From the NCBI GenBank assembly GCA_033791425.1, contig JASJGQ010000261.1:3068-67067 (forward strand): 64,000 nucleotides of DNA, read 5' to 3'. The stretch is from Acidobacteriota bacterium (lineage in GTDB: Bacteria > Acidobacteriota > Thermoanaerobaculia > Thermoanaerobaculales > Sulfomarinibacteraceae). The translations under genes were made by a program, and so were the position numbers. The number at the start of each line of letters is the position of its first letter. Within the stretch, counting starts at the first letter, position 1. Shown here piece by piece: positions 8,779 to 54,805 of the stretch. The notes under the pieces were generated by a model. That model made no database searches. It saw only the letters and a program-made list of their open reading frames with translations, and was not told the origin of the DNA.

Positions 8779-10023
8779 TCAGTCCCTGTTGAAGCTCACC
8801 TTGGCGAACCGGCGATTGCCGACCTGCAACAAAACCACCTGTTGGCCCACTGTGCTCACCCGGGCCTTGGTGTCGCTCGCCACTTCTCCATCAACGCGGA
8901 CGCCTCCCTGCTGGATCAGGCGCCGCGCTTCCGAGTTGGACGAAGCCAGTCCGCCCTCCACCATGATCTTCGACAACAACATCGCGTCGTCAGAAGGCGC
9001 CAGCTCGAACTCGGGGATGTCCTGCGGCAATTTGCCCTTCGAGAACACCCGTTCGAACTCCGCGCGAGCGGCTGTCGCATCCTCCTCGCCATGGAACTCT
9101 GCCACCATCGTGGCGGCGAGGTCCTTTTTGACCTCCATGGGATGGAGGGCGCCATCGGCCACCCGGCGCCGATCCGCCTCGATCTCGCCTTCGGTTCGAT
9201 CCGTCAACAACAACCAGTACTTCCACATCAGGTCGTCGGAGACTGACATCAGCTTGCCGAACATGTCCGTCGGGGTGTCCTCGACCGCCACGTAGTTGCC
9301 AAGAGACTTCGACATCTTCTCGACGCCGTCGAGCCCCTCCAGAAGCGGCAGGGTCATCACGACCTGGGGATCCAGACCGTGCTCCCGCATCAGGTGACGG
9401 CCGACCAGGAGGTTGAAGAGCTGGTCGGTGCCGCCAAGTTCGACGTCGGCCTCGAGGGCCACCGAATCGTAGCCCTGAGCCAGCGGGTAGAGAAACTCGT
9501 GAAGAGCTATCGGCTGCTGAGCTTCATAACGGGTGCGGAAATCGTCCCGCTCCAACATCTGGGCAACAGTCACTTTGGCCGCAAGACGAATCCAGTCCGC
9601 AGAACTCAGGGCTCCCAGCCAGCGTGAGTTGAAATCGATGACAGTCGTCTCTGGGTCGAGCAGCTTGTAGATCTGCCGTTTGTAGGTTGCGGCGTTGCTT
9701 TCGATTTCAGCCGGTGTCAGCTGCGGCCGAGTGCTCTTCTTGCCGGTGGGATCACCGATCAACCCCGTGAAATCCCCGATCAGGAAGACCACCGTGTGGC
9801 CCAGTTGTTGGAAGTGCCGCATTTTACGAATCACCACCGTATGACCCAGATGGAGGTCCGGAGCAGAGGGGTCGAACCCTACTTTGACAACCAACTTTTT
9901 GCCGCTGGCCTGCGCACGCCGCAGCTTGTCCGCGAGCTGATCGGCCGGAACGACATCGACGCATCCCTTGTTCAGATAGCTCAGCTGTTGATCAAGATCG
10001 AGCTGTTTCACGCTCTCCTCCAC
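8779..10023 (-). CDS. tyrS: Tyrosine--tRNA ligase
   Basis: Class I signatures HLGH (PDLHLGHTV) and KMSKS (KMSKSLGN) are present, with a C-terminal S4-like domain. Confidence 0.95.
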   Translation of the reverse strand: MEESVKQLDLDQQLSYLNKGCVDVVPADQLADKLRRAQASGKKLVVKVGFDPSAPDLHLGHTVVIRKMRHFQQLGHTVVFLIGDFTGLIGDPTGKKSTRPQLTPAEIESNAATYKRQIYKLLDPETTVIDFNSRWLGALSSADWIRLAAKVTVAQMLERDDFRTRYEAQQPIALHEFLYPLAQGYDSVALEADVELGGTDQLFNLLVGRHLMREHGLDPQVVMTLPLLEGLDGVEKMSKSLGNYVAVEDTPTDMFGKLMSVSDDLMWKYWLLLTDRTEGEIEADRRRVADGALHPMEVKKDLAATMVAEFHGEEDATAARAEFERVFSKGKLPQDIPEFELAPSDDAMLLSKIMVEGGLASSNSEARRLIQQGGVRVDGEVASDTKARVSTVGQQVVLLQVGNRRFAKVSFNRD

Positions 10024-10039
10024 ACTCGGCCTTCTGTCA

Positions 10040-12028
10040 TCACTCTTCGATTTCGACGATCGGCAAGATTCCGGCGGCCGTGATCTGCAACTCGTCCCAC
10101 CGCACCAGACCGCTCAAGGCCTGATTCACGGTTTCCACCGATACCGAAAGGATGTTCATTTCCATTTCCGACGCCTGCTGCCATCGTGCCGCGCCGGCTG
10201 CAACCGCCGCGCACCGGCGGGCTCGACCCGTCGCACCGCTCCAACGGGCGGCCGCGACAGCGGCAACCCGGCGCCGTGCGGGTGTCAGCTCGTCCTCTTC
10301 CGCCGGTGCCGTCAGCGCGCTCCAGCTCTCCTGCAAACTGTTCTCGAGATCCTCCAGCGGCGACACCGCAGTCACCACCAGCAACAACACAGAACGTCCA
10401 GGCACATAGGGCGCGAGCACCTCAACATCAGCTCCCGCAAACAACGCGGACCCGCGACCGAGCAACAGCTCCGCCAGGACCAGGGGTTGCGCCTCACCGA
10501 GAGCGACTGGAATGTCGAGGGTCAGAACCACAGAGGACTGTTTCCCCGCAACCGCCTCGCGGGTCTTCGGCACCGGCGGCAACGTTTGTCCGGAAGTCAC
10601 GCGAACGGTTCTGTTGCCAATCGTCCAGAATTTTCGAACCGCCTCTGCGGCCGCCTCGCCATCCTCGGCGACAACGCCGATGGCGAGATTTTCCTGACGC
10701 AAAAGAGTGATCGCAGTCAACTCGAAACCCTCTGCGACGCCGAGAACACCCGCCGTCATTCGGAGCGCCCGGCGACGGGCGTCACCCGGCGCAAACGGGA
10801 TCGAGCGCTGATCCGCCGCCACCCGCTCGGTGGCGGCACGAAGAGCCTCGACGAGCTCTGCAAACTGCCCGGAGGGCGATGCGATCTCGAGACGGGGCGG
10901 GCTGGATCCGACTTCCACCCAGCCGGGACGTTCAGCGCCCGCGCGCAATTCGCGCGCAACCTTCGTGAGGATCGTCGCCGCCATTTCGTTGTCGAGGTCG
11001 GGGATGACAACCGGCCGCAGACAGACGACCCCCAGCGGCGTACCCGGTCTCTCGAGAATGGCCGCCATGAGACCGCTTTCGAGTTGAAGCACATTCGGCG
11101 GAGAGGCGAATCGCGGGTTGAGGGCCTGCGGCGGCAGCACCACGACCACGCTGCCAGGATGCTGCGGGAGCCAAACTCGAGCAGCTTCGCGAACTCCACC
11201 CAGGGTGACGCCCTCGGCGGCAAAGAGGTACTCACGGACCGCGGCGATTCCGCCCGCGGTCCACAATTCGAGGAGGTGCAGTGCCGCCTCCGGATGTTTT
11301 TCCAGGAGGGCGCGGCGTTGAACCAGGAGCCTCTGCGCCGCAGCCTCGACCTGGTCGCCCTTGAGGCGGGGGTCTTCCGAGATCCGCGCGAGCCCGATGC
11401 GCAGTTTGGTGAGCTCGAGGTCCACCCTATCGGCATTTACCCGCGCTTCGAGGATCCCCCGCGGGCCCTCGGTTCGGCTCTGGAGTCCCGCTAGATCTCC
11501 GGACAGGATCTCGGGCAGGAGATCCCAGAGAACCTCCGCTGGAGTTCGATTTGGATCGGACGGTGCCGGCAGATTGACCTGAAGCCTGATCTCGGCTTCC
11601 GAACCAGGCGGGCCGAGACGGCGCTCCATCCGGGCCTCGTCAACATATTCGCGAACCTGCACTTGGATACGTCCCGCGGTCCGTCCTGCAAATGATCTCT
11701 CCAGCACCCCGCGGAGCTCCACGAGGGGGACACCACCGGCAGCAATCACCACGGGCGGCGCAGGGCCGTCGGGTGACAAGGCCAGCGCCGCCTCGAGATC
11801 GGCGATCAACGTCATTTCGCCGCTGGTGACCACGAGGGCCATCTCTTCAGCTACAGCCGGCCACGCTACCGTCGTAGCATCGGACATGGGCTCTTCAACC
11901 ACTATGAGGACCGTACCGTTGGACAGACGCTCCGTGTGGAGAGCCTGGGCCTCCACTGACGCGGCGCTGCCGTAAGCGACAGTCGCCAACGCCAATAAGC
12001 ACTGTAGACACGAGCGTTTCACCTTCAT
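10040..12028 (-). CDS. Secreted protein with distant, degenerate pitrilysin (M16)-like two-lobe organisation; no HxxEH zinc motif
   Basis: The signal peptide is MKVKRSCLQCLLALATVAYGSAASVEA. Both halves open with an M16-like strand (ERLSNGTVLIVVEEP... and LESGLMAAILERPGTP...). I saw no HxxEH motif anywhere. The ORF track start (12256) was trimmed. Confidence 0.5.
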   Translation of the reverse strand: MKVKRSCLQCLLALATVAYGSAASVEAQALHTERLSNGTVLIVVEEPMSDATTVAWPAVAEEMALVVTSGEMTLIADLEAALALSPDGPAPPVVIAAGGVPLVELRGVLERSFAGRTAGRIQVQVREYVDEARMERRLGPPGSEAEIRLQVNLPAPSDPNRTPAEVLWDLLPEILSGDLAGLQSRTEGPRGILEARVNADRVDLELTKLRIGLARISEDPRLKGDQVEAAAQRLLVQRRALLEKHPEAALHLLELWTAGGIAAVREYLFAAEGVTLGGVREAARVWLPQHPGSVVVVLPPQALNPRFASPPNVLQLESGLMAAILERPGTPLGVVCLRPVVIPDLDNEMAATILTKVARELRAGAERPGWVEVGSSPPRLEIASPSGQFAELVEALRAATERVAADQRSIPFAPGDARRRALRMTAGVLGVAEGFELTAITLLRQENLAIGVVAEDGEAAAEAVRKFWTIGNRTVRVTSGQTLPPVPKTREAVAGKQSSVVLTLDIPVALGEAQPLVLAELLLGRGSALFAGADVEVLAPYVPGRSVLLLVVTAVSPLEDLENSLQESWSALTAPAEEDELTPARRRVAAVAAARWSGATGRARRCAAVAAGAARWQQASEMEMNILSVSVETVNQALSGLVRWDELQITAAGILPIVEIEE

Positions 12029-12968
12029 GGCGGCCGTCATGGTAGCATGCCGACCAATGCGCATCGATACCCACGCAACAGCTGTGTCGGCCATCGCCAT
12101 CTCGTGGTTGGCAGCGATCACAGCATTGGGATCCACTCTCTTGCTGGCCGTCGTCGGCCAGGGTTTGGGCGCTGTGGCGGGGGGCTGTGGCTGGATCGGG
12201 GCGACCTTTCCCCTGGACCGCCAGGTCTGGGCGTTGGTCAACCAGCCCACCCTCAACTTTTCGTCGTTGCCGAGCGCGGGTGGCTACTGGCTCGGATCGA
12301 TGGTGTTGCCATTGCTCGCCGCTCTGTTCCTGCTCACTCTACGACCTCGAAAGCCGACCCTGGTCGGCCAACTGGTGGTGGTTCAGATGGCCTGGTGGGC
12401 AGCTCTGGTGGCGGGGACGTGGCTCCCTCTCCTGGATCCGGTCGATGGCCACCTCTCGAGGTGGTTGCTGTTGCACCGACTCCCAGCAACGCTGGTGTGG
12501 TCCGTCCCCGCGGTGGCGGCGGTTGTCGCCGTGTTCGCGACCTTGCGAGTGCTCGAAATAGCCCGCGGCTCGCGCTCTGACCTCGGCCGCGGTGCCCGGG
12601 AAGGAATCATCGTCGTCCACCTCGTCCTTCCGGTCCTGGGTTGGATCGGCACGATTTTTCTTGTCGCGGGTTCGTTGCCCCCGGCTCCGGTCATCGGGCT
12701 CGCGGTGCCGGTGGCTGCCGCGCTGGTGTTCGGTTGGTTTCGGTATCCCCCTCCCTACCCCCGCCCGCTGCGCGCGCCTTCGCGCCACGCTGTCGTTGCC
12801 CTCCTTGGCGGGGCCCTGTTCGCGGCGGGCGCGATCTGGATGGGAGGTCGTCCGCTTTCCGACGGCCACACGGCGGGCGTGTTATGGGGCAACCCTGGAA
12901 GTTTCAACAATATTCGACCGTGGATCGAGTTCCCCTCGTCCGCGGCGGAGGGACACGATGATGGCTGA
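12027..12968 (+). CDS. Polytopic inner-membrane protein, unknown family
   Basis: It has several hydrophobic helices and a Pro-rich loop (RYPPPYPRPLRAP). The start is uncertain (ATG 12027, 12039 or 12057). Confidence 0.5.
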   Translation: MAAVMVACRPMRIDTHATAVSAIAISWLAAITALGSTLLLAVVGQGLGAVAGGCGWIGATFPLDRQVWALVNQPTLNFSSLPSAGGYWLGSMVLPLLAALFLLTLRPRKPTLVGQLVVVQMAWWAALVAGTWLPLLDPVDGHLSRWLLLHRLPATLVWSVPAVAAVVAVFATLRVLEIARGSRSDLGRGAREGIIVVHLVLPVLGWIGTIFLVAGSLPPAPVIGLAVPVAAALVFGWFRYPPPYPRPLRAPSRHAVVALLGGALFAAGAIWMGGRPLSDGHTAGVLWGNPGSFNNIRPWIEFPSSAAEGHDDG

Positions 12969-13078
12969 ATGCCGGAGGCGGCCGCCGTGCCCATCCGGTG
13001 TTTCGAACAAGTTATACTATGCTGCAATGCCCCATTCGCCCAAGGCAATGGAGCACGACAACACAAGGAGTTGAAACC

Positions 13079-13594
13079 ATGAATTCGAAAGTCGAAAAGG
13101 GGCTCAACGAACAGATCCACGCGGAGTTCTTTTCATTTTATCTCTACCTTTCAGTCGCCGCCTACTTCACCAAGATCCACCTCGACGGCTTTTCTCACTG
13201 GATGCGTGTCCAGTCGCAGGAGGAGTTCGGCCACGCCATGAAGCTCTTCAACTACCTCAATGAACGGGGCGGCACGGTCGAGTTGATGGCACTCGATGCC
13301 CCCCAGAGCGAGTGGACCTCACCGGCGGCTGCGGTGGAGGCTGTGCTCAAGCACGAGCAGTACATCAGTCGACGCATCAACGAACTCGTGGATCTCGCAA
13401 ACAACGAAAACGACCATGCCACGACCGTTGTGTTGCACTGGTACGTCAATGAACAGGTCGAAGAAGAGGCCACCGCCGACACCCTCTTCCATCAGGTGCA
13501 GATGGTGGAGTCGAACCCTCACGGCCTCCTCATGATCGATCGTGAGTTGGCCGCTCGCCCGGCGGCAGCGCCGGTGGGTGCCGGTCAAGCCTGA
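13079..13594 (+). CDS. ftn: Ferritin (non-haem, Ftn-type)
   Basis: The ferroxidase-centre context is present: LNEQIHAEFFSFYLYLSVAAYF, QEEFGHAMKLFNYLNERGG, EQVEEE. An SD (AAGGAG) lies 8 nt upstream of ATG 13079. Confidence 0.9.
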   Translation: MNSKVEKGLNEQIHAEFFSFYLYLSVAAYFTKIHLDGFSHWMRVQSQEEFGHAMKLFNYLNERGGTVELMALDAPQSEWTSPAAAVEAVLKHEQYISRRINELVDLANNENDHATTVVLHWYVNEQVEEEATADTLFHQVQMVESNPHGLLMIDRELAARPAAAPVGAGQA

Positions 13595-14556: not shown

Positions 14557-15936
14557 ATGATCAATGGATGTCTAGATCGGCTCCACTTCGGGGACCTTCT
14601 CCAATGGTTCCATATGGGCAACGTCAGTGGCCGTCTCAGCCTTCAGGGCAGCCGTGGCGAGCGCCGGCTTGATTTCAGCCGTGGCAAGGTGTGCTTTGTC
14701 TCTTCGACCGTACCCGAGGAACGTCTCGCGTCCTGGATCGCCGCGGGAAGTCTCCTCAACCCCGACCACCTCCGCCGGGTCCTGGCGCATTCGATGCTTC
14801 GGCGCGAGCTTTTCACCGACCTGCTACTGGCCGAGGGCCAGTTCAACGCAGATCAGCTCAAAGAGAGTCTGACCGAACTCGCCGAGGCCGTGACCGGGCG
14901 GGTTCTCTCGTCACCTCAGGTCGACTTTTCCTTCGATCCCGACTATCCGGTCCTCGATGTTCTCGGTCTCAGACTCGATGTGGCGCCGAACCAACTTCTT
15001 CTGGAGGCCGCCCGCCGCTCCGACGAAGGGGACCTCGGAACACCGGACGGCGACCGTCACGAGTTGCCGCTTGGCGGCGAGGCCTTCGAGAGCCTGTTCT
15101 GGGATCTGGTTCGAGATGGCATTTCAGCTGATGACCCGGTTGACGGGGCGAGGTTGACGGCGTTTCATAATCTCGTTCAGGACATCGTGAATACGCTCGC
15201 GCAATGGCTGGCTTCTAGCCCCGGGTTGGTCCCGTTGCCGAAGAGTCAGGTCGCTGCCATCTCGGGGGATGTCATCGGCCGGGACGCCGAGGAGCTCTTC
15301 GGCCTGCCCCACGCCACCTGGGACCAAATGGTTCTCGCCCGTGCCCTCCATATTTCCGGACACGAGGGCCCCTTCACGATGGCCGAGATCGAAAAAGCGA
15401 CCGCTGAAATCGACATTGTTCCCGACCTCGTGGCCGCCGACTTTCTTCACCGTCCCGATGCCGGCAGACTCGACCGGCTCGTCCGTCGGCTGGTCAGCGT
15501 GTGGTCCCGGACAGCCGCGGCGGCAGCGCCCCACCTCGGCGTCGATCCACGCACCGCGACGCTAGCTGTCCACCTGGTGTCGGTCCCGACGGATCTTGTG
15601 TTGTGGGTTCTAACCACGTTGCCGGTACCCCATCGTCAGCTCCGCAAGGCCCTCCTGATCCACCTCTCACGGCGTGTGGGCTCTCGTCTGGCGCGACTGG
15701 CAGACTTTCCAACACCTTTCCGGGAAATTGTCAGCCCGCAGACTCCAACCCCTCTCGGCATCTGTCTCAACCTCGGCCGTCGCTGCCTTCCGACGGTTGC
15801 AGGGTGGCCGGCAACGGTTCCTGAAGACAGCGATGTGGAACTCGATTTTGCCTCGTCAGCGGCTCTGGCGATGGCGGAAGATGCTGCCCGCCAGACGGCG
15901 GCAGAGACCGACGCCGACGTTCTCGCGATAGGCTAA
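14557..15936 (+). CDS. DUF4388 (PatA-N-like) domain protein with a roughly 330-aa uncharacterised C-terminal region
   Basis: The N-terminus LDRLHFGDLLQWFHMGNVSGRLSLQGSRGERRLDFSRGKVCFVSS...RLASWI...LLNPDHLRRVL matches the DUF4388 pattern. I trimmed from 13894 because the upstream part is antisense to the RimK-like gene. The alternative start is ATG 14509. Confidence 0.65.
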   Translation: MINGCLDRLHFGDLLQWFHMGNVSGRLSLQGSRGERRLDFSRGKVCFVSSTVPEERLASWIAAGSLLNPDHLRRVLAHSMLRRELFTDLLLAEGQFNADQLKESLTELAEAVTGRVLSSPQVDFSFDPDYPVLDVLGLRLDVAPNQLLLEAARRSDEGDLGTPDGDRHELPLGGEAFESLFWDLVRDGISADDPVDGARLTAFHNLVQDIVNTLAQWLASSPGLVPLPKSQVAAISGDVIGRDAEELFGLPHATWDQMVLARALHISGHEGPFTMAEIEKATAEIDIVPDLVAADFLHRPDAGRLDRLVRRLVSVWSRTAAAAAPHLGVDPRTATLAVHLVSVPTDLVLWVLTTLPVPHRQLRKALLIHLSRRVGSRLARLADFPTPFREIVSPQTPTPLGICLNLGRRCLPTVAGWPATVPEDSDVELDFASSAALAMAEDAARQTAAETDADVLAIG

Positions 15937-15958
15937 GCCTGATGGGCCGCAGAAGCCC

Positions 15959-18133
15959 TTACTGCGGCAGAGCGATCACAACCTCGGTGCCCTCACCAAA
16001 GGTACTGGCAATCGTGATCGTACCCCCGTGGATCGTCGCCACCCTGTCCGCGATCGCGAGACCGAGTCCGATGCCGTGTCGTTTGCCGGCCGTCGAATCG
16101 TCGCCCTGCCAGAAGGCCTCACGAACCCGATCAAGGTCGGTCTCCGGGATCCCCACGCCGACATCGCTGACACGCAGCTGCAGCCATCTTTCGTCGCCTC
16201 GCGTCACCCGACGGACTTCGAGTTTGACCTCACCACCTTCGTGACTGAATTCGACCCCGTTTCTGACCACCGCCCGAAGGGCCGCTTCGATGCTCTCACG
16301 GTCGCACGAAATCGTCTCGAGCCCGCTCGGAATCAACATCACGATATTGACCTTGCGGTCTTTTACGAGATCCCGAAGAGGCGCTATTGCCTGCCGGAAG
16401 AGCTCCTGCGCCGGCACCGGTCGGCACACGAGGTCACGACCCCCCCCACCCAGCACCGAAACTTGAAAGATACTCTGGATCATCTCCAGAAGCTTTTCAC
16501 TCTCGTCGTGGATGATCGCCACCAGGCGGCGCGCCTTGTCGGCTGGAATGTCCTCGTCACGCTCGAGGATCTTCGCGGCAGTGAACAGCGAGGTGACAGG
16601 GGTCTTGAATTCGAGCGAGAGACGGTTGATGAGCTCGTTCTTGACGCCGTCAAGGGTGGCGAGGTCCCGATACGCCTCTTCGAGAAGAGACTTCTTTTCC
16701 GCCAGATCGTCGGCCAGGCGCCTCGATTGGGCGAGTGAATTTCTCAGCTCCGATGTGCGTTCAGCGACCTGCTCCTCGAGGCCCCGGCTGAGTTCTTCCA
16801 TCTGTTTCCAGGCGATCGCATTGGCGTAACCCATGGCGGCGGCGGACACGAGAACCGACACCAACTGGAGATCATCCTCGTCAAGATCGTTGCGTTCGGC
16901 GTCTCCAAATACCGTCACGAGGCCAATGATCTTGTCCTGGGTCTGGAGTGGCACGGCGATCGCCGATGCAAAACCGGCTCTCTCCACGACAGCCATCGCC
17001 TCCGCTGCGACATCATCACCCACCGTCATGGTCACGAGGTGCGGCGCCTGACGATCGAGCAGAGTTGCCGCCATCGAGCGTCCCTGTTCATCGACTTCGC
17101 TATTAAAAGGGTCATTGCTGAAGCCGTGAACCACTGCTTCTCGGAGTTGGCCGGAGGTCGGAACGATCAAGGCCGCGGCGCCCTGGACTTCAAGCAACTT
17201 GATGGCTGTCGATATCAGGAGCCTCAACACCGATGCCGGGTCGCGTTCGTTGCCTACAGCACGGCCGTATTCGGAAATCCCGGCCATCACCCGAACCTTG
17301 CGCTCGAGAAGTCGGCTCAGGCTGTCCAGACGTGTATTGAGTTCTCCCATGACCAGATTGGCCCGCAAGGCCTCGGCCACGAGGTCATCATCGGTCAAAG
17401 CCTCACCCGACGGGTCGTCGCGTTCGGCGACAGTGATCTCAATGTCGTCAGCCGGAAGGGGTGCTCCACCGGCGGCGAGAAACGGCTCCATCGAAGCGTT
17501 CATCTGGTAGCGGAGGCGGTCAAGGGCCTGCGGATTGTCGCCGACGCCGAGCTTGTCGGCGACTGTCACCAGCGTCAGCTCGCCGATCGCCTTGAAGGCC
17601 TCGAGCACTCCGTCGCCGGTGGTCGCCACGGTAGGAAACGAAGGTAGCCCCTGTGGGTTGAGGGCGGCCTCCATTTCTTCAAGGCTCAGGATCGGACTCA
17701 GGTCGCGCTTGTTGAACTGAAATACTATCGGGAGGCCCTGGACATCGAGGCTGTTGGCGGCGAGGTTATGTTTCAGATTCTGAAGCGACTCGACATTGTG
17801 CTCTCGCTGATCGATCTGTGAGTCCGCCACAAAGACGACTCCATCGGCGCCCGCGAGGACGGTTCGTCTGGTGGCGTCGTACTGCACCTGGCCCGGCACG
17901 GTATAGAGCTGGAGAGAGAGGCGAAAATCTCGAATTCGACCGAGATTGAGCGACAAGAGGTCAAAAAAGAGCGTCCGGTCGGCAGCCGTGTTGAGAGAGT
18001 AGAGTCGTGTGCGACGCTCGGGATCGAGGACGCGGTGTATCTGCTGGAGCGATGTCGTCTTTCCGCCGGTGGCCGGCCCGTAGTAGACGATCTTGATTTT
18101 GACCTGGCGGTTTTTGTTGTCGAACTGAACCAT
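15959..18133 (-). CDS. Fusion protein: MglA-type small GTPase + GAF domain + histidine-kinase core (degenerate H-box, intact HATPase_c)
   Basis: Residues 1-195 are collinear with MglA: KIKIVYYGPATGGKTT, DRTLFFD, YTVPGQ, QFNKRD, ATTGDGV. A GAF-like region spans about residues 296-440. A coiled coil is followed by the DHp helix RLSLEFKTPVTSL. The N box (VVRNGVEFS), G1 (DVGVGI) and G2 (GIGLGL) are present. No TM segment was seen. Confidence 0.85.
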   Translation of the reverse strand: MVQFDNKNRQVKIKIVYYGPATGGKTTSLQQIHRVLDPERRTRLYSLNTAADRTLFFDLLSLNLGRIRDFRLSLQLYTVPGQVQYDATRRTVLAGADGVVFVADSQIDQREHNVESLQNLKHNLAANSLDVQGLPIVFQFNKRDLSPILSLEEMEAALNPQGLPSFPTVATTGDGVLEAFKAIGELTLVTVADKLGVGDNPQALDRLRYQMNASMEPFLAAGGAPLPADDIEITVAERDDPSGEALTDDDLVAEALRANLVMGELNTRLDSLSRLLERKVRVMAGISEYGRAVGNERDPASVLRLLISTAIKLLEVQGAAALIVPTSGQLREAVVHGFSNDPFNSEVDEQGRSMAATLLDRQAPHLVTMTVGDDVAAEAMAVVERAGFASAIAVPLQTQDKIIGLVTVFGDAERNDLDEDDLQLVSVLVSAAAMGYANAIAWKQMEELSRGLEEQVAERTSELRNSLAQSRRLADDLAEKKSLLEEAYRDLATLDGVKNELINRLSLEFKTPVTSLFTAAKILERDEDIPADKARRLVAIIHDESEKLLEMIQSIFQVSVLGGGGRDLVCRPVPAQELFRQAIAPLRDLVKDRKVNIVMLIPSGLETISCDRESIEAALRAVVRNGVEFSHEGGEVKLEVRRVTRGDERWLQLRVSDVGVGIPETDLDRVREAFWQGDDSTAGKRHGIGLGLAIADRVATIHGGTITIASTFGEGTEVVIALPQ

Positions 18134-18182: not shown

Positions 18183-19055
18183 CTACCCGCCATTCGAGGG
18201 CTTGTCCGGACGCCCCTTTTTCCGGGGGGATTTCTTGGCCACCGAGACACCGACCCGTGAGGCTTCGGCAAAAACGTAGCTCGGGTCCCCGGTCTTCTGA
18301 TTGATGATCGTCGCATAGGGAAATACAAGCGCAGTGTCGGGCCCGGAATCGAGGTAAAAGACCAGGCTCCCGCCCTCGAGGATTGTGCCGAGCCGTCGTT
18401 GGGTGTGACCAAACGGAGGGACGTCGAAGAACTCGGAGTCCAGGACGGCGCCATCGGCGCTCTGGATATCGAGACGGATTGTGGTCCACTCGGCCGTCCA
18501 CGAAGCAATGCCGACGTTGCAGCGAAAATATTCCCCATCGTTGAGGATTCCAGCCGCGTAGGCGAGGGACTCCCAATCGGTTCCCCGCTCGACACCCGCT
18601 CCGAAAACCGTCAGGCCAAACTCGCCATCGCCGCTCGCGTCCGGTGTGTAGGTCCGCGACGTGGTCAGGAAGTGACAGTCCTCGATCGGGTCGCAGGCCA
18701 GGGCCGTGTCGGCGTAGGCGAGGATCGCCGCCGTACCTTCAAGATCGAAGACCTCGGGCCCCAGAACATCCCACAGGTTCAGTGTCTGCCACGGAGAGAG
18801 GGTGATGGTGAGGGTCGGCACCACGGTGTTCTCGGTATCGGTGGGCAGGGCCTGGACCACGACCGGCAGGTCATACTCGTGGGGATTGTGGAGCGACAGG
18901 TCCGTTCTCCAAAAGGTGTTGCGGGCCCCGGCGTTGGAGGCGGCCGCAGGTATCATCCAGTCGGCAGACAGCTGCGCCGCCGCCGGGAGGGCGAATCCCG
19001 AGATCACGACCCATCCGCAGAAGACGGCTCGACGAACGATGGTCGATTTCACCAT
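18183..19055 (-). CDS. Secreted beta-rich protein, unknown family
   Basis: The signal peptide is MVKSTIVRRAVFCGWVVISGFALPAAAQ and an SD (GGAGG) precedes ATG 19055. It ends 49 nt upstream of the GTPase-kinase gene on the same strand. The C-terminal tail is basic (KKSPRKKGRPDKP). Confidence 0.6.
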   Translation of the reverse strand: MVKSTIVRRAVFCGWVVISGFALPAAAQLSADWMIPAAASNAGARNTFWRTDLSLHNPHEYDLPVVVQALPTDTENTVVPTLTITLSPWQTLNLWDVLGPEVFDLEGTAAILAYADTALACDPIEDCHFLTTSRTYTPDASGDGEFGLTVFGAGVERGTDWESLAYAAGILNDGEYFRCNVGIASWTAEWTTIRLDIQSADGAVLDSEFFDVPPFGHTQRRLGTILEGGSLVFYLDSGPDTALVFPYATIINQKTGDPSYVFAEASRVGVSVAKKSPRKKGRPDKPSNGG

Positions 19056-19186
19056 GGCAACCTCCGACCACTTGATAGGCAAGGATCGTGCCACCGCCTG
19101 GGTCGTTGCACCGCACCCTCCCCGCACGAATGTGTCCTCCAAAGAGGACGACGGCCAGGACCACATATACTTGAAACGGAGGCTGA

Positions 19187-19738
19187 TTGGTGCGGATTTC
19201 GGGAGGGTTCGTGGTCACAGCGCTGTTGGCGGCGGGGTTTGCGTTGTACCTGACGGGCCGAGACGCCGGGTCGAGTCTTGACGCTGTAGCAAAGGTGTCC
19301 GAAGAGCTGCGCGAACCCGACGTTCCCGGTCAGGCGCTCGACCCCGAAACCGCGCTCCGGATGGTGACCGTCATGGAAGGCCTTGTCGACGCTCCCGAAG
19401 CCATCGGTGATTACGGAGAGGACCTGAGACTCATGGCTGACACGGCGGCTTCGTGGGCAGCAGCGGCGCCCACCGCCAGCCGCGAACTCCACATCGCTGT
19501 GAGTCTCCGGAGTGCCGCCGGGGACCTTCGGGCCTACGCCCTGAGACCATCGCAGTCATATCTCATGCGGGCCCGGCGTCGCCTCGACCAGGCACAAAGC
19601 TCCCTCGACGGAATGCTGAACAGCACCGCAACGCAACAGCCGCACCTGGCGACCGACGGGCTCCGTGATCAGCTGCAGAACCTCGAACAGGCGCATCGCG
19701 AACAGCAGCTGGAGGTCGACAAAGAACTCAGGCGTTGA
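19187..19738 (+). CDS. N-terminally membrane-anchored helical protein, unknown family
   Basis: It has one N-terminal TM segment (GGFVVTALLAAGFALYL) and a helical, Gln/Leu-rich C-terminus. GGAGG lies 5-8 nt upstream of TTG 19187 / GTG 19190. Confidence 0.5.
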   Translation: MVRISGGFVVTALLAAGFALYLTGRDAGSSLDAVAKVSEELREPDVPGQALDPETALRMVTVMEGLVDAPEAIGDYGEDLRLMADTAASWAAAAPTASRELHIAVSLRSAAGDLRAYALRPSQSYLMRARRRLDQAQSSLDGMLNSTATQQPHLATDGLRDQLQNLEQAHREQQLEVDKELRR

Positions 19739-33841: not shown

Positions 33842-35260
33842 GTGGCGAGAGGCTTGGAACTCGATTGGATCGTAGTCCGTGTACAACCGCTGAGAACGGT
33901 CTTGGCGGTGTTGACTGTTGGTCTCATCGCCGCCACCCTCGTCTATTTCGCGTACAAGAGCCTCAATCTTCCCCCCCAGGCCCGTGCCAGCCGGGCCATC
34001 GACCGTGCGTCCGCCGCCCTTACCGATGCCCAGAGTCAGACCCTGCCGGCGCAGTGGCGCGGAGAACTCCGGAACGCCTCGGAGCAGCTCGACACGGCGC
34101 GCGCGGCATTTATCGAGGGGCGCTGGGTGGAGGCGGAGACGGTTGCCGACGGTGCGCGTCGACGGTTCGAGGCCCTGGCTGGAGCCGGTGGCGAACTCGT
34201 TGGAGCTGGAAAGTTCTTCAGCCTCGAAGGACGGGTCGAAGTCCAACGGGCCGGCCAGACAGGGTGGGAGGGCGGCAACGAGCAACAGCCCGTCTTCAAT
34301 GGTGATTTTGTTCGCACAGGGCGCGACGGAGAGGCCGAAATTCTCTTTGCGGACGGCAGCCTGTATCGCATCGCTCCCAACTCGCTGTTGGAAATCCACA
34401 ACGAAATGTCGGCCGAGTCCAGCGGCACCGTCAAGATGGTGGTGGGCCGAATCAACGTGTATACATCAGGCACCCCTTCCACCGTTACCACCGACACCGC
34501 GCTGACCGAGATCGACCCGGACAGCCGCGTTGCTGTCGACGTCGCCGCGGACGATTCCGAGACGCGCGTCGCGACATTTCAAGGTTCGGCGACGGTCCGC
34601 AACACCCGCGGAGACGAGGTCGTCATCCATGAACGTGAGGCCGTTGCGGCCACGGCGGGCGGCGTGATTTCTGAAAAGCAACAGATCCCGGCGGCTCCGC
34701 TCCCGATCTCTCCTCAAAACAACGTCGGATTCGATTTCGGCGAGCAGCAGGTCATCGAGCTGGCGTGGCGGGGCCGACCCACGGCGGGAACAGTACATCT
34801 TCAGGTTGGTCGTTCCAAGACCTTCGATTCGACTCAGCTCGACGTCGATGCGCGAAGTCTAGCCAAAGATAAGGTGCGCATGAAATTGGTCAACCCCGGC
34901 ACCTACTTCTGGAGGGTCGCCTGCAGCCGGGGGGATTCCCCGTCATCGGAATGGAGCTCGGCGCGACGCTTCAGAGTGTACTCGTCGGCGAGCAATGCCG
35001 TTCTGGAGGACACCACGCCACCTGAACTGACCATCGACCCGCCGCAACAGCTCGGTCGCATGTTCATCATCGAAGGGGCCACCGAGGTTGGTGCCACCAT
35101 CACCATCAACGGCGAGCGGGTGGAACTCGGCCTCGGGGGCAAGTTCCGCAAGACCGTCGAAATGTTCAAGGAGGGTTGGAGCGACATCCTGATCGTTGCC
35201 ACCGATCCATCGGGCAATAATAGCGAACACCGTCAGCGCGTGTTTGTGGAGGTTTATTAA
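33842..35260 (+). CDS. Membrane-anchored FecR-domain protein with C-terminal Ig-like domains
   Basis: It has a TM segment ([19 protein letters not shown]), a FecR-like segment ([35 protein letters not shown]) and beta-rich C-terminal modules. GTG 33842 has GGAGGA 9 nt upstream. Its stop overlaps the mreB ATG (TAATG). Confidence 0.7.
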
Positions 35261-36285
35261 TGCATCTCTCCAGCCTTCTGGGGCTGTTCTCATCCGATCT
35301 CGCCATTGACCTCGGCACCGCCAATACCCTCGTTTATGTACGGGGCCGAGGTATCTGTGTCGTCGAGCCTTCGATCGTCGCGGTGAACCGGATCACCAAC
35401 CGCGTAGAAGCGGTCGGGTCCAAGGCCAAGGAAATGCTGGGCAAGACACCCAGTAATATCCAGGCCATCCGGCCGATGAAAGACGGTGTGATTGCGGACT
35501 TCGAGGTCACCGAAAAGATGCTCGAGCACTTCATTCGCAAGGCGCACGGGCGTTCCTTCCTGGTGAGGCCGCGAATCATCATTTCGGTGCCTTCCGAGAT
35601 CACCCAGGTCGAAAAGCGCGCCGTTAAAGACACCGCCCTGAAGGCCGGGGCCTCCGAGGTCTATCTCATCGAACAGGCCACCGCCGCCGCTATCGGCGCC
35701 GGGCTGCCGATCACCGAACCATCGGGCAACATGATCGTGGACATCGGCGGCGGCACCTCGGATGTGGCGGTGATTTCACTTGCCGGCGTTGTCTACTCGC
35801 GTTCGGTCCGGGTTGCAGGGAATGAAATGGACGAGGCGATCATCCATTACCTCAAAAAGAAGTACAACCTCCTCCTGGGCGAGCGGACCGCAGAACGGAT
35901 CAAAATCGAGATCGGGTCAGCCTACCCACTTGATGAACCTCTGACCATGGAAGTCAAGGGGAGAGACCTCGTGGAGGGCGTGCCGAAGAACCTCACGATC
36001 ACCGACGAAGAGATTCGCGAAGCTCTCACAGAGATCATTTCGACGATCGTTGATGCGGTCCGCAACGCCCTCGAACAGACTCCCCCCGAGCTCTCGGCAG
36101 ACATCATCGACAAGGGGATTATTCTCGCGGGTGGCGGGTCCCTCCTCAAGAACCTCGACAAAAGGCTTCGTGAGGAGACAGGTTTGCCGGTGGCTCATTG
36201 TGAAGAGCCCGGTTCGGCGGTGGTGCGTGGCACCGGCATGATGCTCACGAACATCGACCTCTTGCGCAAGATCGCGATCAGCTGA
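35260..36285 (+). CDS. mreB: Rod shape-determining protein MreB
   Basis: Actin-fold motifs are present: DLGTANTLVY, IVDIGGGTSDVAV, GIILAGGGSLL. Confidence 0.95.
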   Translation: MHLSSLLGLFSSDLAIDLGTANTLVYVRGRGICVVEPSIVAVNRITNRVEAVGSKAKEMLGKTPSNIQAIRPMKDGVIADFEVTEKMLEHFIRKAHGRSFLVRPRIIISVPSEITQVEKRAVKDTALKAGASEVYLIEQATAAAIGAGLPITEPSGNMIVDIGGGTSDVAVISLAGVVYSRSVRVAGNEMDEAIIHYLKKKYNLLLGERTAERIKIEIGSAYPLDEPLTMEVKGRDLVEGVPKNLTITDEEIREALTEIISTIVDAVRNALEQTPPELSADIIDKGIILAGGGSLLKNLDKRLREETGLPVAHCEEPGSAVVRGTGMMLTNIDLLRKIAIS

Positions 36286-36401
36286 GCTCTTCCACCGGGG
36301 TATCATGACGGGGTGCAAGCGCGTATTTCTCACAACGTTTCAGCGCGAGGACGGCGCAGACCCGTTTCGCGTGAATTGAGTCGTTCCAAAACGGTCCCGG
36401 C

Positions 36402-37226
36402 ATGACTGTATCGAGGCCGCCCGCCGTCCTGACGATTCTGCTGTGGATCGTGCTCGAGGTCATCGCAGCGTGGCAGGTTCGAACACCAGAGGGAACTCCC
36501 GTCCTGGCGATGTGGATTCGATCGGTCGCACGGCCGCTGGCCTGGTCCGCGGAGAAGATCGGGCACCTCATCGTCGATGCGAGCCTCGGGACCACCGATT
36601 TGCAACAGGTCATCGTCGACAACCGTTCTCTCCAGCTCGAGGTTGAGAGGTTGTCGGCCCGGAACATGCTACTCGAGGAGGACATTGCGGCTTTCCGCGA
36701 TGCTGATGAGCTGTTACGTGACAGCGCCGGGTTTTCGAACGGCGCCGTCATTGCGCGCTGCACATTCCGTGATCTGGCCGCGGGGTCGATGGAGGTCCGG
36801 ACGGCCTCGACGATCTATCTGCCCCGCGACACACCCGCCATTACCGGGGGCGGTCTGGTGGGGCGCGTCGTGCGCAGCGAAGGCAGTCGCCACTGGCTTC
36901 AGCTGATCACCCATGGCGCAGCCGCAGCGGCGGTTCAAACTCCTGACAGCGATGTGCAGGGGCTCGTCGTCGGTACTGGCGGAGAGACTCTCACCGTGGC
37001 ATATGTTCCTCGGCAGGCCCGGCTCGAGAAGGGCCAGGTTCTCATCACCAGTGGCGGAGACGGTATCTTTCCGCCCGGTATTTCGGCGGCAACAGTCGTC
37101 CGTGTGCGAGAGACCGAGAACCCCTTCCTCGAAATCGGAGCCGAACCGACGGCCGATCTCCGGACCACCAGAATCGTCATGCTCCTCCCGCTGTGGTCGG
37201 CATCTGGTGGCGGTGAGGCTGAATGA
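36402..37226 (+). CDS. mreC: Rod shape-determining protein MreC
   Basis: It has an N-terminal TM segment, a coiled coil (LQLEVERLSARNMLLEE) and a beta-barrel domain (GLVGRVV, VLITSGGDGIFPPGI). It sits directly after mreB. Confidence 0.8.
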   Translation: MTVSRPPAVLTILLWIVLEVIAAWQVRTPEGTPVLAMWIRSVARPLAWSAEKIGHLIVDASLGTTDLQQVIVDNRSLQLEVERLSARNMLLEEDIAAFRDADELLRDSAGFSNGAVIARCTFRDLAAGSMEVRTASTIYLPRDTPAITGGGLVGRVVRSEGSRHWLQLITHGAAAAAVQTPDSDVQGLVVGTGGETLTVAYVPRQARLEKGQVLITSGGDGIFPPGISAATVVRVRETENPFLEIGAEPTADLRTTRIVMLLPLWSASGGGEAE

Positions 37227-37247
37227 AGGAGGCCCCCGTCTTCGTCC

Positions 37248-37811
37248 GTGTCGGGTCTCATCGAGAGAACCGTCGCGCCTCGCAATCCTCGCCGCATGCC
37301 CGGGAGAGAAATGCGGTTTAGGCTCATCATCCCGGTGTTGCTGACCCTGCTGGCACAACGGATGCTCGGCATGCCCGGGATGCCGCCGTGGGCCGCCGAG
37401 GTTCTCCTTCCCATGGCATGGATTGTGGCGGCGGCATTGCTGCAAAAGGAACACGGTTGGCCATATCAGGCCCTCGTGATCGGCCTCGCCTGGGATGTTT
37501 TGTTCGAGCCCGTTATCGGCCCGGGGGGAATTGCCTGGAGCGCAGCCTGTCTCGCCTTGTACGCTTTCGCGGGTTTGGTCGCCGACCGATCACCGAAGGC
37601 GTGGGTGGGGTTCGGCCTGATCGGAGCGGCCATCGTAACCCTGGTTCACCGCGCCGCCCTGGTCCCCCTCGGTCTCCCCTTTTCTCTCACCCTGGGTCAC
37701 TGGCTGCGTTTGGTTGCCTTCACTGGGCTGTGGTGCGGTTTGGTTGGGGCAATCCTCAAGCTCGATTTCCCAGGTCAGTGGCAGGCCTATCGATCTCGGA
37801 AGCTGCGTTGA
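37248..37811 (+). CDS. mreD: Rod shape-determining protein MreD (probable)
   Basis: It is a small polytopic membrane protein between mreC and mrdA. The start may be ATG 37311. Confidence 0.6.
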   Translation: MSGLIERTVAPRNPRRMPGREMRFRLIIPVLLTLLAQRMLGMPGMPPWAAEVLLPMAWIVAAALLQKEHGWPYQALVIGLAWDVLFEPVIGPGGIAWSAACLALYAFAGLVADRSPKAWVGFGLIGAAIVTLVHRAALVPLGLPFSLTLGHWLRLVAFTGLWCGLVGAILKLDFPGQWQAYRSRKLR

Positions 37812-37812
37812 T

Positions 37813-39645
37813 ATGATGGAACTGAGAGAGGACATCGGGCCCCTTCGCCGACGCACGGTCGTGATTTTTTTACTCGTGTTCGCAGCCCTCGGTCTGATCC
37901 ACCTTCGACTGGTTCACCTGCAGTTGGTGCACGGCACCCAGTGGCGAAATCTCGCCGAGAACAACCGTCTCCGTCGGCTGCCCCTACCCGGCCCGCGCGG
38001 CTGGATCTACGACCGGCGCGGAGAGGTGTTGGCCGAGAACCTCCCGTCGTGGGAGCTCCTGTTGTTCCCTGACGAGGCGGTGAATCTCGATCAGACCGGG
38101 CTGTTTCTCGCTCGCGAAGGCATTGCTGAAACGACTACTTTCAGGGAGCTCCTCGCCGAACGCCGCACCGGCCGTCAGGCGCCGCTCGTCGTCGGTGAGA
38201 ATCTGACCTGGAACCAGGTCGCGGCAGTCCACTCGCATCAAGGCGACCACCCCGAGCTTTCGGTGGTCAGCCGATTCAGACGCCACTTTCCTTTCTCCGA
38301 ACTCACGGCCCACGCGGTCGGCCACCTCCGTCCGATCTCAAAAGCGCAGGTGGCGGAAAACCCCGACCTGGAACCCGACCTGATGGTCGGGGCCACCGGG
38401 ATCGAAGCACACAAAGAGGCCTTCCTCGCTGGTACGTCAGGGCAACGATGGATGATGGTTTCGGCGGTAGGGCGTCAGCTGGGCGTCGTGCGCGAAACCT
38501 TGCCGACGACCGGACACGACCTCGGATCCGCCCTCGATGTGAGGCTTCAGCAGGCAGCGGCTGCCGCGATGGGGGAGCGCGCCGGCGGTGTCGTCGCGCT
38601 GGATCCGCGAAACGGCGCCGTTCGGGTCCTCTACTCATCGCCAAGCTTCGATCCTGCCGTCTTCGGTGGTCGGCTCAGCCGAGCCGACTGGCAGACGCTG
38701 CAGGAAGACCCAGACCATCCATTACAGAACCGTTGCTTGCAGGGGGTGTATCCGCCGGGGTCGACCATCAAGCCGTTTCTCGCCCTCGGCGGCCTGAGCG
38801 AGGGCCTAATCGACGCCCATACAACGGTCTACTGCAACGGGTCGATCGTTCTGTACGGCCATCGCTTTCATTGTTGGCGGCGCGGCGGCCACGGATTCGT
38901 TGATCTCGAGCGCGCCCTCGCCGAGTCGTGCGATGTGTACTTCTATCTGCTCGGCCAACGCCTCGGCATCGAAGGTATCGCGCGGTGGCTGCAGCTCTTC
39001 GGCTTTGGCGAGAAAACCGGGCTCGACCCACAGTTCGAGTCCGCCGGATTGATCGGCACCCCGGAATGGAGCCGGCGGGTACGAAAGACTCCCTGGTACC
39101 CCGGCGAGGCGGTTTCCGTGTCCATCGGTCAGGGCCCACTCCTGGTGACGGTGGTTCAGCTCGCATCCGCGTTTGCGATGCTCGCGAACGGCGGCCATCC
39201 GGTCGTCCCAAATCTGGTGCCGGAAAATGCTGAAAGCCCCACACCGCCAGAAATCGACCCCAGCTACCTGCACCTGGTCAACGCGGCCCTCGCCGAGGTT
39301 GTCCACGGAGAGCGCGGCACGGCGCGCAGGTTGGGGGCACTGCCGATGGCCGGGAAAACCGGCACCGCCCAGGTTGCCCGTTTGCAGGAGGGGGTGGAGC
39401 CCGACGAGCTCGAATCGCACCTCCGCCACCATGCCTGGTTTGTCGGCTGGGCGCCGCTCGATGAGCCCGAGATCGTGGTCGCCGTCATTGTCGAACACGG
39501 TGGGGACGGCAGCAGAGCCGCCGCCCCTGTGGCAGGCCAGGTCGTCGAGGCCTACCTCAGTATAGGTCAGGACGAACCCGCGAACATCGAGGGCGAAGAT
39601 CAAGAGGTGACCTTCGAACCCGCGCCCTCCACCGGGGGCGGGTAG
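37813..39645 (+). CDS. mrdA: Penicillin-binding protein 2 (elongasome transpeptidase)
   Basis: Active-site motifs are present: YPPGSTIKP (SxxK), the SCDVYF region and GKTGTAQV (KTG). I trimmed to ATG 37813, directly after the mreD stop. Confidence 0.9.
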   Translation: MMELREDIGPLRRRTVVIFLLVFAALGLIHLRLVHLQLVHGTQWRNLAENNRLRRLPLPGPRGWIYDRRGEVLAENLPSWELLLFPDEAVNLDQTGLFLAREGIAETTTFRELLAERRTGRQAPLVVGENLTWNQVAAVHSHQGDHPELSVVSRFRRHFPFSELTAHAVGHLRPISKAQVAENPDLEPDLMVGATGIEAHKEAFLAGTSGQRWMMVSAVGRQLGVVRETLPTTGHDLGSALDVRLQQAAAAAMGERAGGVVALDPRNGAVRVLYSSPSFDPAVFGGRLSRADWQTLQEDPDHPLQNRCLQGVYPPGSTIKPFLALGGLSEGLIDAHTTVYCNGSIVLYGHRFHCWRRGGHGFVDLERALAESCDVYFYLLGQRLGIEGIARWLQLFGFGEKTGLDPQFESAGLIGTPEWSRRVRKTPWYPGEAVSVSIGQGPLLVTVVQLASAFAMLANGGHPVVPNLVPENAESPTPPEIDPSYLHLVNAALAEVVHGERGTARRLGALPMAGKTGTAQVARLQEGVEPDELESHLRHHAWFVGWAPLDEPEIVVAVIVEHGGDGSRAAAPVAGQVVEAYLSIGQDEPANIEGEDQEVTFEPAPSTGGG

Positions 39646-39654
39646 AATCAGTCT

Positions 39655-52201: not shown

Positions 52202-52627
52202 ATGTCCCGCCTCCATCTCTTGTTCGTTTGCATCGGGAACTGCTGCCGCTCTCCAATGGCCGAAGCCATGGCCCGCAGCCTCGGGGGCGATCGCGTGTCG
52301 GCCCAATCGGCCGGGCTCTCCCCCGCGGGCTTTATCGCTGACCCAACGGTATCGACCTTGCGTCGACTCGGGTACCCGGCCTCTGGCCTGTATTCCAAGG
52401 GTCTCGATGGCGTCGAAACGACCGACGTCGATGTGGTGGTGTCGCTGGTCGGTGGCGAAATCCAACATGGATTCGGCTGCGGACCTCAGGCTCGTTTGGT
52501 TCACTGGCCCCTGCCGGATCCTTTTGGGGAAGACGAGTCCCTGTACCTCCGTGTCGCTCGTGACATCGAGACCCGGGTGCGTGGCCTCCTCGACGAGGAA
52601 CTGGCCGGGGAACTTCTGCCCGATTGA
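52202..52627 (+). CDS. Low-molecular-weight protein tyrosine phosphatase / ArsC-like family
   Basis: The P-loop is LLFVCIGNCCRSPMAE (CX5R-S) and the general-acid context is LPDPFG. The length is 141 aa. Confidence 0.85.
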   Translation: MSRLHLLFVCIGNCCRSPMAEAMARSLGGDRVSAQSAGLSPAGFIADPTVSTLRRLGYPASGLYSKGLDGVETTDVDVVVSLVGGEIQHGFGCGPQARLVHWPLPDPFGEDESLYLRVARDIETRVRGLLDEELAGELLPD

Positions 52628-52661
52628 GGCGTCACACTGACGGGAGGCGCTATGGCACACT

Positions 52662-54751: not shown

Positions 54752-54805
54752 GCGATTCTCCTTTGTTGCGAGCACCAATGTCGAACTCGATCGAGAGTCG
54801 AAATC

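Follow-up and report, generated by a model that had tools for sequence, protein, structure and literature searches.

Small GTPases of the MglA family fall into groups that differ in short sequence motifs. The hallmark of Group 1 is an intrinsic arginine adjoining the conserved G2 threonine, and the G3 motif reads TVPGQ in Group 1, GTPGQ in Groups 2-5 and DxxGQ in eukaryotic Ras (PMC4316618). Group-1 mglA genes usually lie within about four genes of a gene for MglB, a Roadblock/LC7 protein, although this is not universal, SofG being an exception, and Group-1 and Group-5 mglA genes occasionally adjoin genes for PATAN proteins (PMC4316618). PATAN is an output domain that binds PilB1/PilC in Synechocystis (bioRxiv 10.1101/2021.06.11.447907). 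Furthermore, the actinobacterial G-protein systems known as conservons comprise the kinase CvnA, the roadblock protein CvnB, CvnC, the GTPase CvnD and, in some cases, the GAF protein CvnF (PMC13343842). The present study concerns a gene in a 64-kb stretch (hereafter the window) of contig JASJGQ010000261.1 from an Acidobacteriota bacterium of the Sulfomarinibacteraceae, which encodes in a single chain an MglA-type G domain, a linker, a GAF domain, a signalling helix, a DHp-like hairpin and a HATPase_c domain, in that order.

The sensor-kinase part of this fusion carries leucine where working kinases have the phospho-acceptor histidine, and the genes that accompany the histidine-bearing relatives are missing beside it. 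The reading favoured here, about as apt to prove right as wrong, is that the protein serves as a pseudokinase scaffold with a GTPase output. Coordinates of the features are collected in the table.

Features of the fusion gene and its two nearest neighbours; positions are those of the window
Feature	Position	Strand	Basis
Whole gene: 724-aa MglA-GAF-(pseudo)histidine-kinase fusion	15959..18133, stop codon included	(-)	Open reading frame listing, Pfam, phmmer search of PDB, full-length homologues
Group-1 MglA-type G domain, residues 1-195	17549..18133	(-)	Gapless alignment to M. xanthus MglA, motif invariance
G-domain motifs (residue numbers): P-loop G19-T27; R53 beside T54; TVPGQ 78-82 with catalytic Q82; NKRD 141-144; A170-V176
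Linker, residues 196-296	17246..17548	(-)	Low-confidence AlphaFold2 secondary structure, per-segment conservation
GAF domain, residues 297-440	16814..17245	(-)	Pfam GAF_2 and GAF, E about 8e-9, above gathering score
Signalling helix (coiled coil) joining GAF to DHp, residues 441-495	16649..16813	(-)	AlphaFold2 helix, kinase alignments
DHp/HisKA-like helical hairpin without phospho-acceptor His, residues 496-565	16439..16648	(-)	Pfam HisKA; alignments to 7z8n, 6qrj and HK853
L507 codon, phospho-acceptor His position of canonical kinases	16613..16615	(-)	Translation check, alignment to solved kinases
HATPase_c (CA) domain, residues 566-724	15962..16438	(-)	Pfam, invariant boxes, dN/dS
Convergent 459-aa protein: N-terminal PATAN (DUF4388/PatA_N) and about 300 aa without known family	14557..15936	(+)	Pfam DUF4388, 62 bits
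327-aa protein, N-terminus signal-peptide-like by eye	18183..19166	(-)	Open reading frame; no Pfam match

Architecture of the fusion and its G domain

The open reading frame (ORF) starts with ATG and runs for 724 amino acids (aa) with zero internal stops. A GGAGG lies just 5' of the start, which is 49 nucleotides (nt) beyond the stop of the preceding gene on the same strand, and GC content at third and second codon positions (0.72 and 0.41) shows a profile typical of coding sequence. An earlier note on this DNA, made from the letters alone, had described a single polypeptide and had recommended confirming it by long reads or PCR. That concern is settled without resequencing, since independent assemblies share the full-length ORF. 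The best 120 protein clusters, a count that is a lower bound (at least 120), have 62-97% identity and 702-773 aa, come from independent assemblies and match the query over 100% of its length. Among 322 related stretches obtained by scanning one genome per GTDB species, the best 80 all match residues 1 to 722-724, and each of these has its ORF of 709-739 aa intact. This was the ground for rejecting an assembly or frameshift artefact, and that the gene is such an artefact or a decaying pseudogene is hardly credible, the ratio of non-synonymous to synonymous substitution rates (dN/dS) being about 0.1 across all domains.

Nearly all of the best 80 stretches belong to metagenome-assembled genomes (MAGs) of the Acidobacteriota class Thermoanaerobaculia, with Ca. 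Sulfomarinibacteraceae, Thermoanaerobaculaceae and Thermoanaerobaculum as host groups. The window's closest genome among them is a Ca. Sulfomarinibacteraceae MAG at 90% identity, and the fusion is the rule across the class. These hosts are uncultured or little-studied Acidobacteriota, including the marine Ca. Sulfomarinibacteraceae. Versions of about 950 aa, suggested by matches of 2.85 kb, were rejected, since the additional length belongs to a kinase gene of its own upstream of the fusion; the fusions themselves have 709-739 aa.

More remote relatives, full-length and 27-36% identical, emerged when 1.84 billion representatives were searched exhaustively and without a profile. By Pfam, these have an Arf/Ras-type N-terminus together with GAF and HATPase_c; HisKA is recognised in roughly half of the members tested, and an extra PAS domain in one variant. 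Some of the distant fusions come from other Acidobacteriota and from Planctomycetota, where they bear the NCBI names 'ATP-binding protein' or 'hypothetical protein'; database names for relatives of the fusion are generic. The same domain order, for which the earlier note had proposed a database search, is therefore present in full-length homologues from Thermoanaerobaculia, other Acidobacteriota and Planctomycetota. The note had also called the fusion unusual. This is fair with respect to the literature, in which the main survey of prokaryotic small GTPases (Wuichet and Sogaard-Andersen, 2014; PMC4316618) excluded proteins longer than 240 aa and in which no description of an MglA-GAF-kinase fusion was found, most subscription journals being beyond the reach of the search. 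It is not true of nature, where the fusion is common to a whole class. No NCBIfam model, kinase models included, reaches its curated cut-off against the protein, and no curated family therefore covers it.

The layout behind the G domain (GAF, coiled coil, DHp-like helix pair and full HATPase_c domain) is as the earlier note had drawn it, and rests on Pfam, a helix in the AlphaFold2 (AF2) model and kinase alignments. Pfam matches GAF at residues 297-434, HisKA at residues 498-559 (30.2 bits against a cut-off of 26.9) and HATPase_c at residues 611-723 (75 bits), and in a PDB sequence search solved kinases align from about residue 444 onward. The GAF domain is presumed to be a ligand-sensing module. 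The AF2 model, which has low confidence (mean predicted local distance difference test 64, predicted template modelling score 0.32) and was used for the layout of secondary structure only, contains a single unbroken helix at 419-525 and, at 221-246, a variable segment that tethers the G domain to the remainder of the chain. Within the linker, a conserved helix at about 201-219 (44% conservation) is followed by this variable stretch of low model confidence at 221-246 (24%) and by a long conserved helix at 248-294 (54%) that leads into the GAF domain.

The N-terminal part matches MglA far better than any other GTPase. In a phmmer search of PDB, M. xanthus MglA (5ymx, 6h17, 6hjh) is matched gaplessly, its residues 7-191 falling on residues 7-191 of the fusion, at E 3.5e-56 and with 51% identity over 185 residues; this bears out the collinearity claimed for residues 1-195. 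T. thermophilus MglA matches at E 3.6e-47; the best four matches are all MglA chains (E 3.5e-56 to 3.6e-47), and the next GTPases, Arl8 and unnamed GTP-binding proteins, follow at E about 1e-5. Pfam sees the N-terminus weakly, as Arf/Ras, and the PDB search is decisive for the MglA assignment, which the note had proposed to check by profile searches.

All motifs that the note had listed are in place: GPATGGKTT at residue 19, DRTLFFD at 52, TVPGQ at 78, NKRD at 141 and ATTGDGV at 170. In the query and its 120 closest relatives (121 sequences), G19, G24, K25, T26, T27, D52, R53, T54, V79, P80, G81, Q82, N141, K142 and D144 are invariant or nearly so, and the key GTPase residues among them (K25, T26, R53, T54, Q82, N141, K142, D144) are also kept across 83 family loci, which encode 81 distinct proteins. 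Both sequence signatures of Group 1 are found, as the intrinsic arginine by the G2 threonine is present (R53-T54 in DRTLFFD, 121/121) and V79, P80, G81 and Q82 of the G3 motif are invariant. Two other features of Group 1 are absent: the fusion is not a small single-domain protein (724 aa against 150-240 aa in the survey), and no MglB gene coupled to it was found in the window or the 83 loci. The N-terminus is thus a complete Group-1 MglA-type G domain, while the whole protein is not a classical MglA. GTP binding is predicted, the motifs being intact. The G domain is also the most conserved domain of the protein, with 72% mean pairwise identity against 41-51% for the others.

The earlier note had further held that MglA proteins normally stand alone at about 195 aa. 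This describes the characterised MglA proteins and not the whole family, in which many long proteins start with an MglA-type domain, so that the small size is not general. Among the sequences of the distant search, phmmer with the query's domains found about 55 with the kinase module and about 81 whose tail exceeds 150 aa and bears no relation to the query. In a 'long MglA' class of about 300-930 aa (P0183, P0186, P0201, P0217 and about 80 others), the N-terminus is a Group-1-like MglA domain that shares about 50% identity with that of the query. Some of the tails sampled are strongly Asp/Glu-rich and others Ala/Leu/Arg-rich, and Pfam found no domain after the G domain in eight members.

Loss of the acceptor histidine and of its partner genes

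The H box of the fusion reads N-R-L-S-L-E-F-K-T-P, with S-L-E-F-K-T-P where canonical kinases have S-H-E-L-R-T-P. L507 aligns on the acceptor histidine of 7z8n (mSHEirtPl), 6qrj (lSHEfrtPl) and the HK853 family. Among the 121 sequences, residue 507 is Leu in 116, Ser in 4, Gly in 1 and never His, and the DHp contains no alternative conserved histidine. Because the acceptor position lacks histidine in all 121, the fusion is counted as a pseudo-histidine kinase rather than a working GTPase-to-kinase phosphorelay, and the 'histidine-kinase' wording of the earlier note has to be given up. Of the features of a HisKA sensor kinase, the hairpin and the HATPase_c boxes are present, and the acceptor histidine and a linked receiver gene are absent; having the HisKA/HATPase_c fold without the defining histidine, the protein is not filed as a histidine kinase. 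It does show what marks a pseudo-histidine kinase (the fold under selection, the acceptor histidine absent), which is a functional class and not a homologous family. With leucine at the acceptor position, no conserved alternative in the DHp and no linked receiver gene, it is highly improbable that the fusion autophosphorylates like a canonical sensor histidine kinase, with a GTPase as its input domain, a description that is probably true of its His-bearing relatives.

Such relatives are found within the family. The acceptor histidine is present in a deeper, Thermoanaerobaculaceae-type clade (42-46% identity; AHELNTPVTAI) and in an intermediate clade (52-58% identity; SHELKTPVTSL), and it is absent in the window's clade and several others (there A, E, T, S, N, D, R or G). 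Most distant fusions outside Thermoanaerobaculia keep SHE[LM]xTPLT. The histidine in the deeper clades and in most distant fusions points to a working kinase as the ancestral state. In a neighbour-joining tree, which is rough and not a formal reconstruction, His-bearing and His-less lineages are interleaved, and this implies that the acceptor histidine was probably lost independently at least three to five times.

The His-bearing loci share a gene order on one strand: a kinase with HisKA and HATPase_c, the fusion, and a 130-aa single-domain Response_reg protein (Pfam). In one of these clusters (L049), gene starts overlap the preceding stops, which suggests that the His-bearing fusions are part of a three-gene operon. 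Counted over distinct proteins with enough flanking sequence, which are not phylogenetically independent, a receiver gene lies downstream in 32/35 His-bearing and 0/39 His-less cases, a kinase gene lies upstream in 30/37 and 0/36, and either partner is present in 31/33 and 0/35. Among the distant members, a Planctomycetota His-bearing fusion (L090) has a single-domain receiver overlapping the fusion's stop, one His-less PAS variant (L086) has a REC-HisKA-HATPase kinase directly downstream, and three His-bearing members have no obvious partner gene.

As side observations on locus L049, the kinase gene lies at 9599-10744 and the receiver gene at 12905-13297, a like arrangement being seen in about 30 Thermoanaerobaculaceae-type loci, and the partner kinase has a 148-aa receiver-like N-terminus that Pfam does not recognise. 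Two ORFs with prepilin-type N-termini (RGVTLIEMLTVLLLFGLIAL, RGMTLVEVLISFFILFVV) lie at about 15627-16840, some 2.7 kb downstream of the fusion operon.

Mean pairwise identity of the DHp is 64% within His-bearing members and 45% within His-less members, whereas the other domains differ little (G domain 75 against 73, GAF 47 against 49, CA 57 against 51, a slight drop). Relaxed constraint in the His-less members is thus centred on the DHp. Together with the loss of the partner genes, this shows that the window's lineage lost the phosphotransfer branch as a unit (histidine, receiver and partner kinase) and kept the GTPase, the GAF domain and the ATP pocket.

The ATP-binding boxes N625 (N), D657-x-G-x-G661 (G1), F674 (F) and G687-x-G-x-G691 (G2) are invariant in 121/121 sequences, and the N, G1 and G2 boxes are also kept across the 83 loci. 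In addition, dN/dS between His-less clade members (Nei-Gojobori) is 0.04-0.13 for the G domain, 0.08-0.17 for GAF, 0.04-0.25 for DHp and 0.07-0.27 for CA. Values of 0.04-0.27 in every domain mean that the whole protein is maintained by selection, and decay into a pseudogene after the loss of the histidine was rejected.

A pocket that stays conserved and under purifying selection despite several independent losses of the histidine could mean that the CA domain is still an active kinase on another substrate, with the MglA domain as a GTP-gated input. The substrate might be the histidine of another kinase in trans, in a heterodimer or partner, or Ser/Thr/Tyr on another protein. Input domains are normally N-terminal in sensor kinases, which is where the G domain stands, and the kinase gene directly downstream of the His-less L086 would also suit this explanation. 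However, the conservation of the pocket is just as well explained if it binds ATP without phosphoryl transfer, neither a kinase nor a receiver gene lies beside the fusion in the window or in any of the 35 assessable His-less Thermoanaerobaculia loci, and Pfam found none among the window ORFs scanned. An active CA domain is, on balance, unlikely.

The DHp of the window's clade also keeps the H+1 acidic residue (D/E508) and the H+4 threonine (T511, 118/121) of the HisKA phosphatase motif, and DivL, which has tyrosine in place of the histidine, is among the PDB matches (4q20, E 2e-13). The protein could accordingly serve as a phosphatase dedicated to a phosphorylated receiver whose gene lies elsewhere, or sense such a receiver in the manner of DivL; binding of the phosphorylated receiver would fall to the DHp, and would be reported or gated by the G domain. 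It is possible that a cognate receiver is encoded at an unlinked site. Nevertheless, other His-less clades lose both H+1 and H+4 (AAQLNPP, ANDLRAP) while keeping the rest of the protein, and the linked receiver gene was lost together with the histidine. A role of this kind is unlikely.

The PATAN neighbour and the proposed mode of action

The gene that faces the fusion encodes a PATAN protein, and the two convergent stops are 22 nt apart. In 28/39 His-less loci, versus 1/35 His-bearing ones, the fusion has a PATAN gene no more than 300 nt away. Moreover, two distant His-less fusions (L085 and L087, 27-28% identity), whose gene neighbourhoods are unrelated, are each followed after 12-27 nt by a TPR+PATAN gene in the same orientation, the PATAN domain standing at the C-terminus of the partner. 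Pairwise comparison detects no similarity between this TPR+PATAN protein and the PATAN protein of the window (BLASTP E 0.39), and the PATAN association recurs independently in distant His-less fusions. These loci are new genomic evidence for PATAN domains working with MglA-type GTPases, and we infer that the adjacent PATAN protein is the prime candidate for a partner or effector.

The pseudokinase scaffold with GTPase output can be set out as follows. The protein is cytoplasmic and built on the chassis of a sensor histidine kinase (GAF, signalling helix, DHp and CA), with a complete MglA-type GTPase tethered at its N-terminus. The ancestral and still widespread form is a working kinase that has the acceptor histidine and shares its operon with a CheY-like receiver and a second kinase. 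With the loss of histidine, receiver gene and second kinase gene alike, the protein of the window's lineage would no longer take part in His-Asp phosphotransfer. It would dimerise through the DHp and the signalling helix, as kinases do, and ligand binding by GAF together with ATP occupancy of CA would set the conformation of the helical core. This conformation would in turn set the nucleotide state or the accessibility of the two tethered MglA domains, and the output would be GTP-dependent binding of a partner, as for free MglA, the PATAN protein being the best candidate.

Several points weigh against the scaffold reading. The AF2 model is too poor for a fold search or for reliable inter-domain contacts, and signals could flow in either direction, with the G domain as output or as input. 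The partner counts, as noted above, do not come from phylogenetically independent cases. The window's PATAN gene is convergent and hence outside the fusion's operon; furthermore, the intermediate His-bearing loci have the order fusion, receiver, PATAN, from which deletion of the receiver would place PATAN beside the fusion, and PATAN adjacency within Thermoanaerobaculia could therefore be partly inherited synteny combined with receiver-gene deletion. With M. xanthus MglB (sequence verified) as the tblastn query, neither the window nor the sequence within 10 kb of the fusion in the 83 loci gave a match below E 0.01, and no pilus, motility or chemotaxis genes are present in the 64-kb window. Any link of the fusion to pili or polarity is inferred.

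The correlated and repeated switch between histidine with receiver and no histidine with PATAN is the most interesting result of the analysis. It makes the family a set of paired natural variants and thereby a comparative experiment on the passage from kinase to pseudokinase. The covalent union of a Group-1 MglA with GAF and a kinase core implies that the modules work in direct contact, and the fusion offers a single soluble protein for studying the coupling of GTPases to two-component systems. More broadly, it is possible, as a tentative proposal, that the family represents a widespread class of fused G-protein/kinase devices, undescribed as far as the literature searches go, in which an MglA switch and a kinase core regulate each other within a dimer and which has repeatedly switched between a His-Asp phosphorelay and a GTPase-to-PATAN output. 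Were this true, the class would be a Rosetta stone for the direct coupling of MglA to kinase cores and PATAN domains.

Surrounding genes and relation to known systems

The 327-aa gene lies 49 nt upstream of the fusion on the same strand, and no terminator is predicted in the gap. In almost all Thermoanaerobaculia loci a homologue occupies the equivalent place, upstream and in the same orientation, and does so even if an additional kinase gene separates it from the fusion; the gene may be co-transcribed with the fusion. The protein has no Pfam and no PDB relative, and PDB sequence searches of two conserved neighbours gave no match. Two conserved ORFs of the window also have no Pfam match, at 10040-12256 (-), 738 aa, and 19187-19738 (+), 183 aa; loci L001 and L002 have similar-sized Pfam-less genes at the corresponding positions, a likeness by size and position only.

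Pfam found no Robl_LC7 domain among the window ORFs scanned, and a second mglA was found neither in the window nor within 10 kb of the fusion in any of the 83 loci. In seven loci of the 709-aa His-less clade (L026, L027, L030, L031, L036, L045 and L080), a weak and non-significant tblastn match (E 0.02-7) to residues 73-106 of M. xanthus MglB lies about 2 kb downstream of the fusion.

The window contains no prepilin motifs and is otherwise made up of housekeeping genes (tyrS, ferritin, rimK-like, purD, pta, ruvAB, mreB-mreC-PBP2-rodA, rho, lon-clpX-clpP-tig, lexA and ATP synthase). The rod-shape cluster mreB-mreC-PBP2-rodA, at 35260-40731 (+), suggests a rod-shaped cell, which is relevant only if the fusion acts in cell polarity. 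At 52202-54778, a low-molecular-weight phosphotyrosine phosphatase, an extracytoplasmic function-type sigma factor, a 138-aa ORF and a STAS-domain protein, possibly an anti-sigma antagonist, form a regulatory cluster that appears unrelated to the fusion.

All domain types in the fusion are known, and functional links between MglA-family GTPases and two-component systems are known as well. In Myxococcus, for example, MglA is linked to two-component signalling via receiver proteins such as RomR and FrzZ. The fusion resembles the MglA proteins of M. xanthus and T. thermophilus in its collinear G domain (51% to M. xanthus), intrinsic arginine, TVPGQ and NKxD, and its nearby PATAN gene has occasional parallels among Group-1 members. 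Those proteins are free, of about 195 aa, and usually encoded beside their GTPase-activating protein (GAP) MglB, whereas the fusion has 724 aa and no MglB was found in the window or within 10 kb in the 83 loci.

That a kinase can be repurposed is established for DivL. Caulobacter DivL and other pseudo-histidine kinases share with the fusion a HisKA/HATPase_c chassis that lacks the acceptor histidine and is reused as a conformational or scaffolding module. Unlike the fusion, DivL has tyrosine at the histidine position, PAS inputs, DivK and CckA as partners and no GTPase domain. PatA-type PATAN-REC regulators such as PixE and PixG likewise use PATAN as a signalling output module (bioRxiv 10.1101/2021.06.11.447907), but there PATAN is fused to a receiver and controlled by phosphorylation, while the window's PATAN protein has no receiver and lies beside a His-less GTPase-kinase fusion. 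Roco proteins and LRRK2 (Roc GTPase, COR, kinase) likewise unite in one dimeric chain a G domain of the Ras superfamily and an ATP-binding domain of the kinase type, and mutual regulation of the two is possible. Their Roc domain belongs to the Rup/Ras branch, they dimerise through COR and their kinase is of the Ser/Thr type, so that they are homologous to the fusion in the G fold only.

The closest functional analogue is the actinobacterial G-protein system. Like the conservons, the fusion combines a GAF sensor, a histidine-kinase-type ATPase and an MglA-family GTPase, and does not require a classical receiver output. Conservons are composed of separate proteins from a four-gene cvnA-D operon, with a Group-2 GTPase (no intrinsic arginine, GTPGQ), a membrane-bound autophosphorylating kinase, a roadblock GAP and CvnC as guanine nucleotide exchange factor, whereas the fusion is a single cytoplasmic chain with a Group-1 GTPase, no acceptor histidine and neither a linked roadblock gene nor a CvnC gene. 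With its Group-1 motifs, and in the phylum Acidobacteriota rather than Actinomycetota, it is analogous to a conservon and not a member. If the proposal of mutual regulation within a dimer is true, the fusions would be a bacterial equivalent of the GTPase-kinase logic found in Roco/LRRK2 and in conservons.

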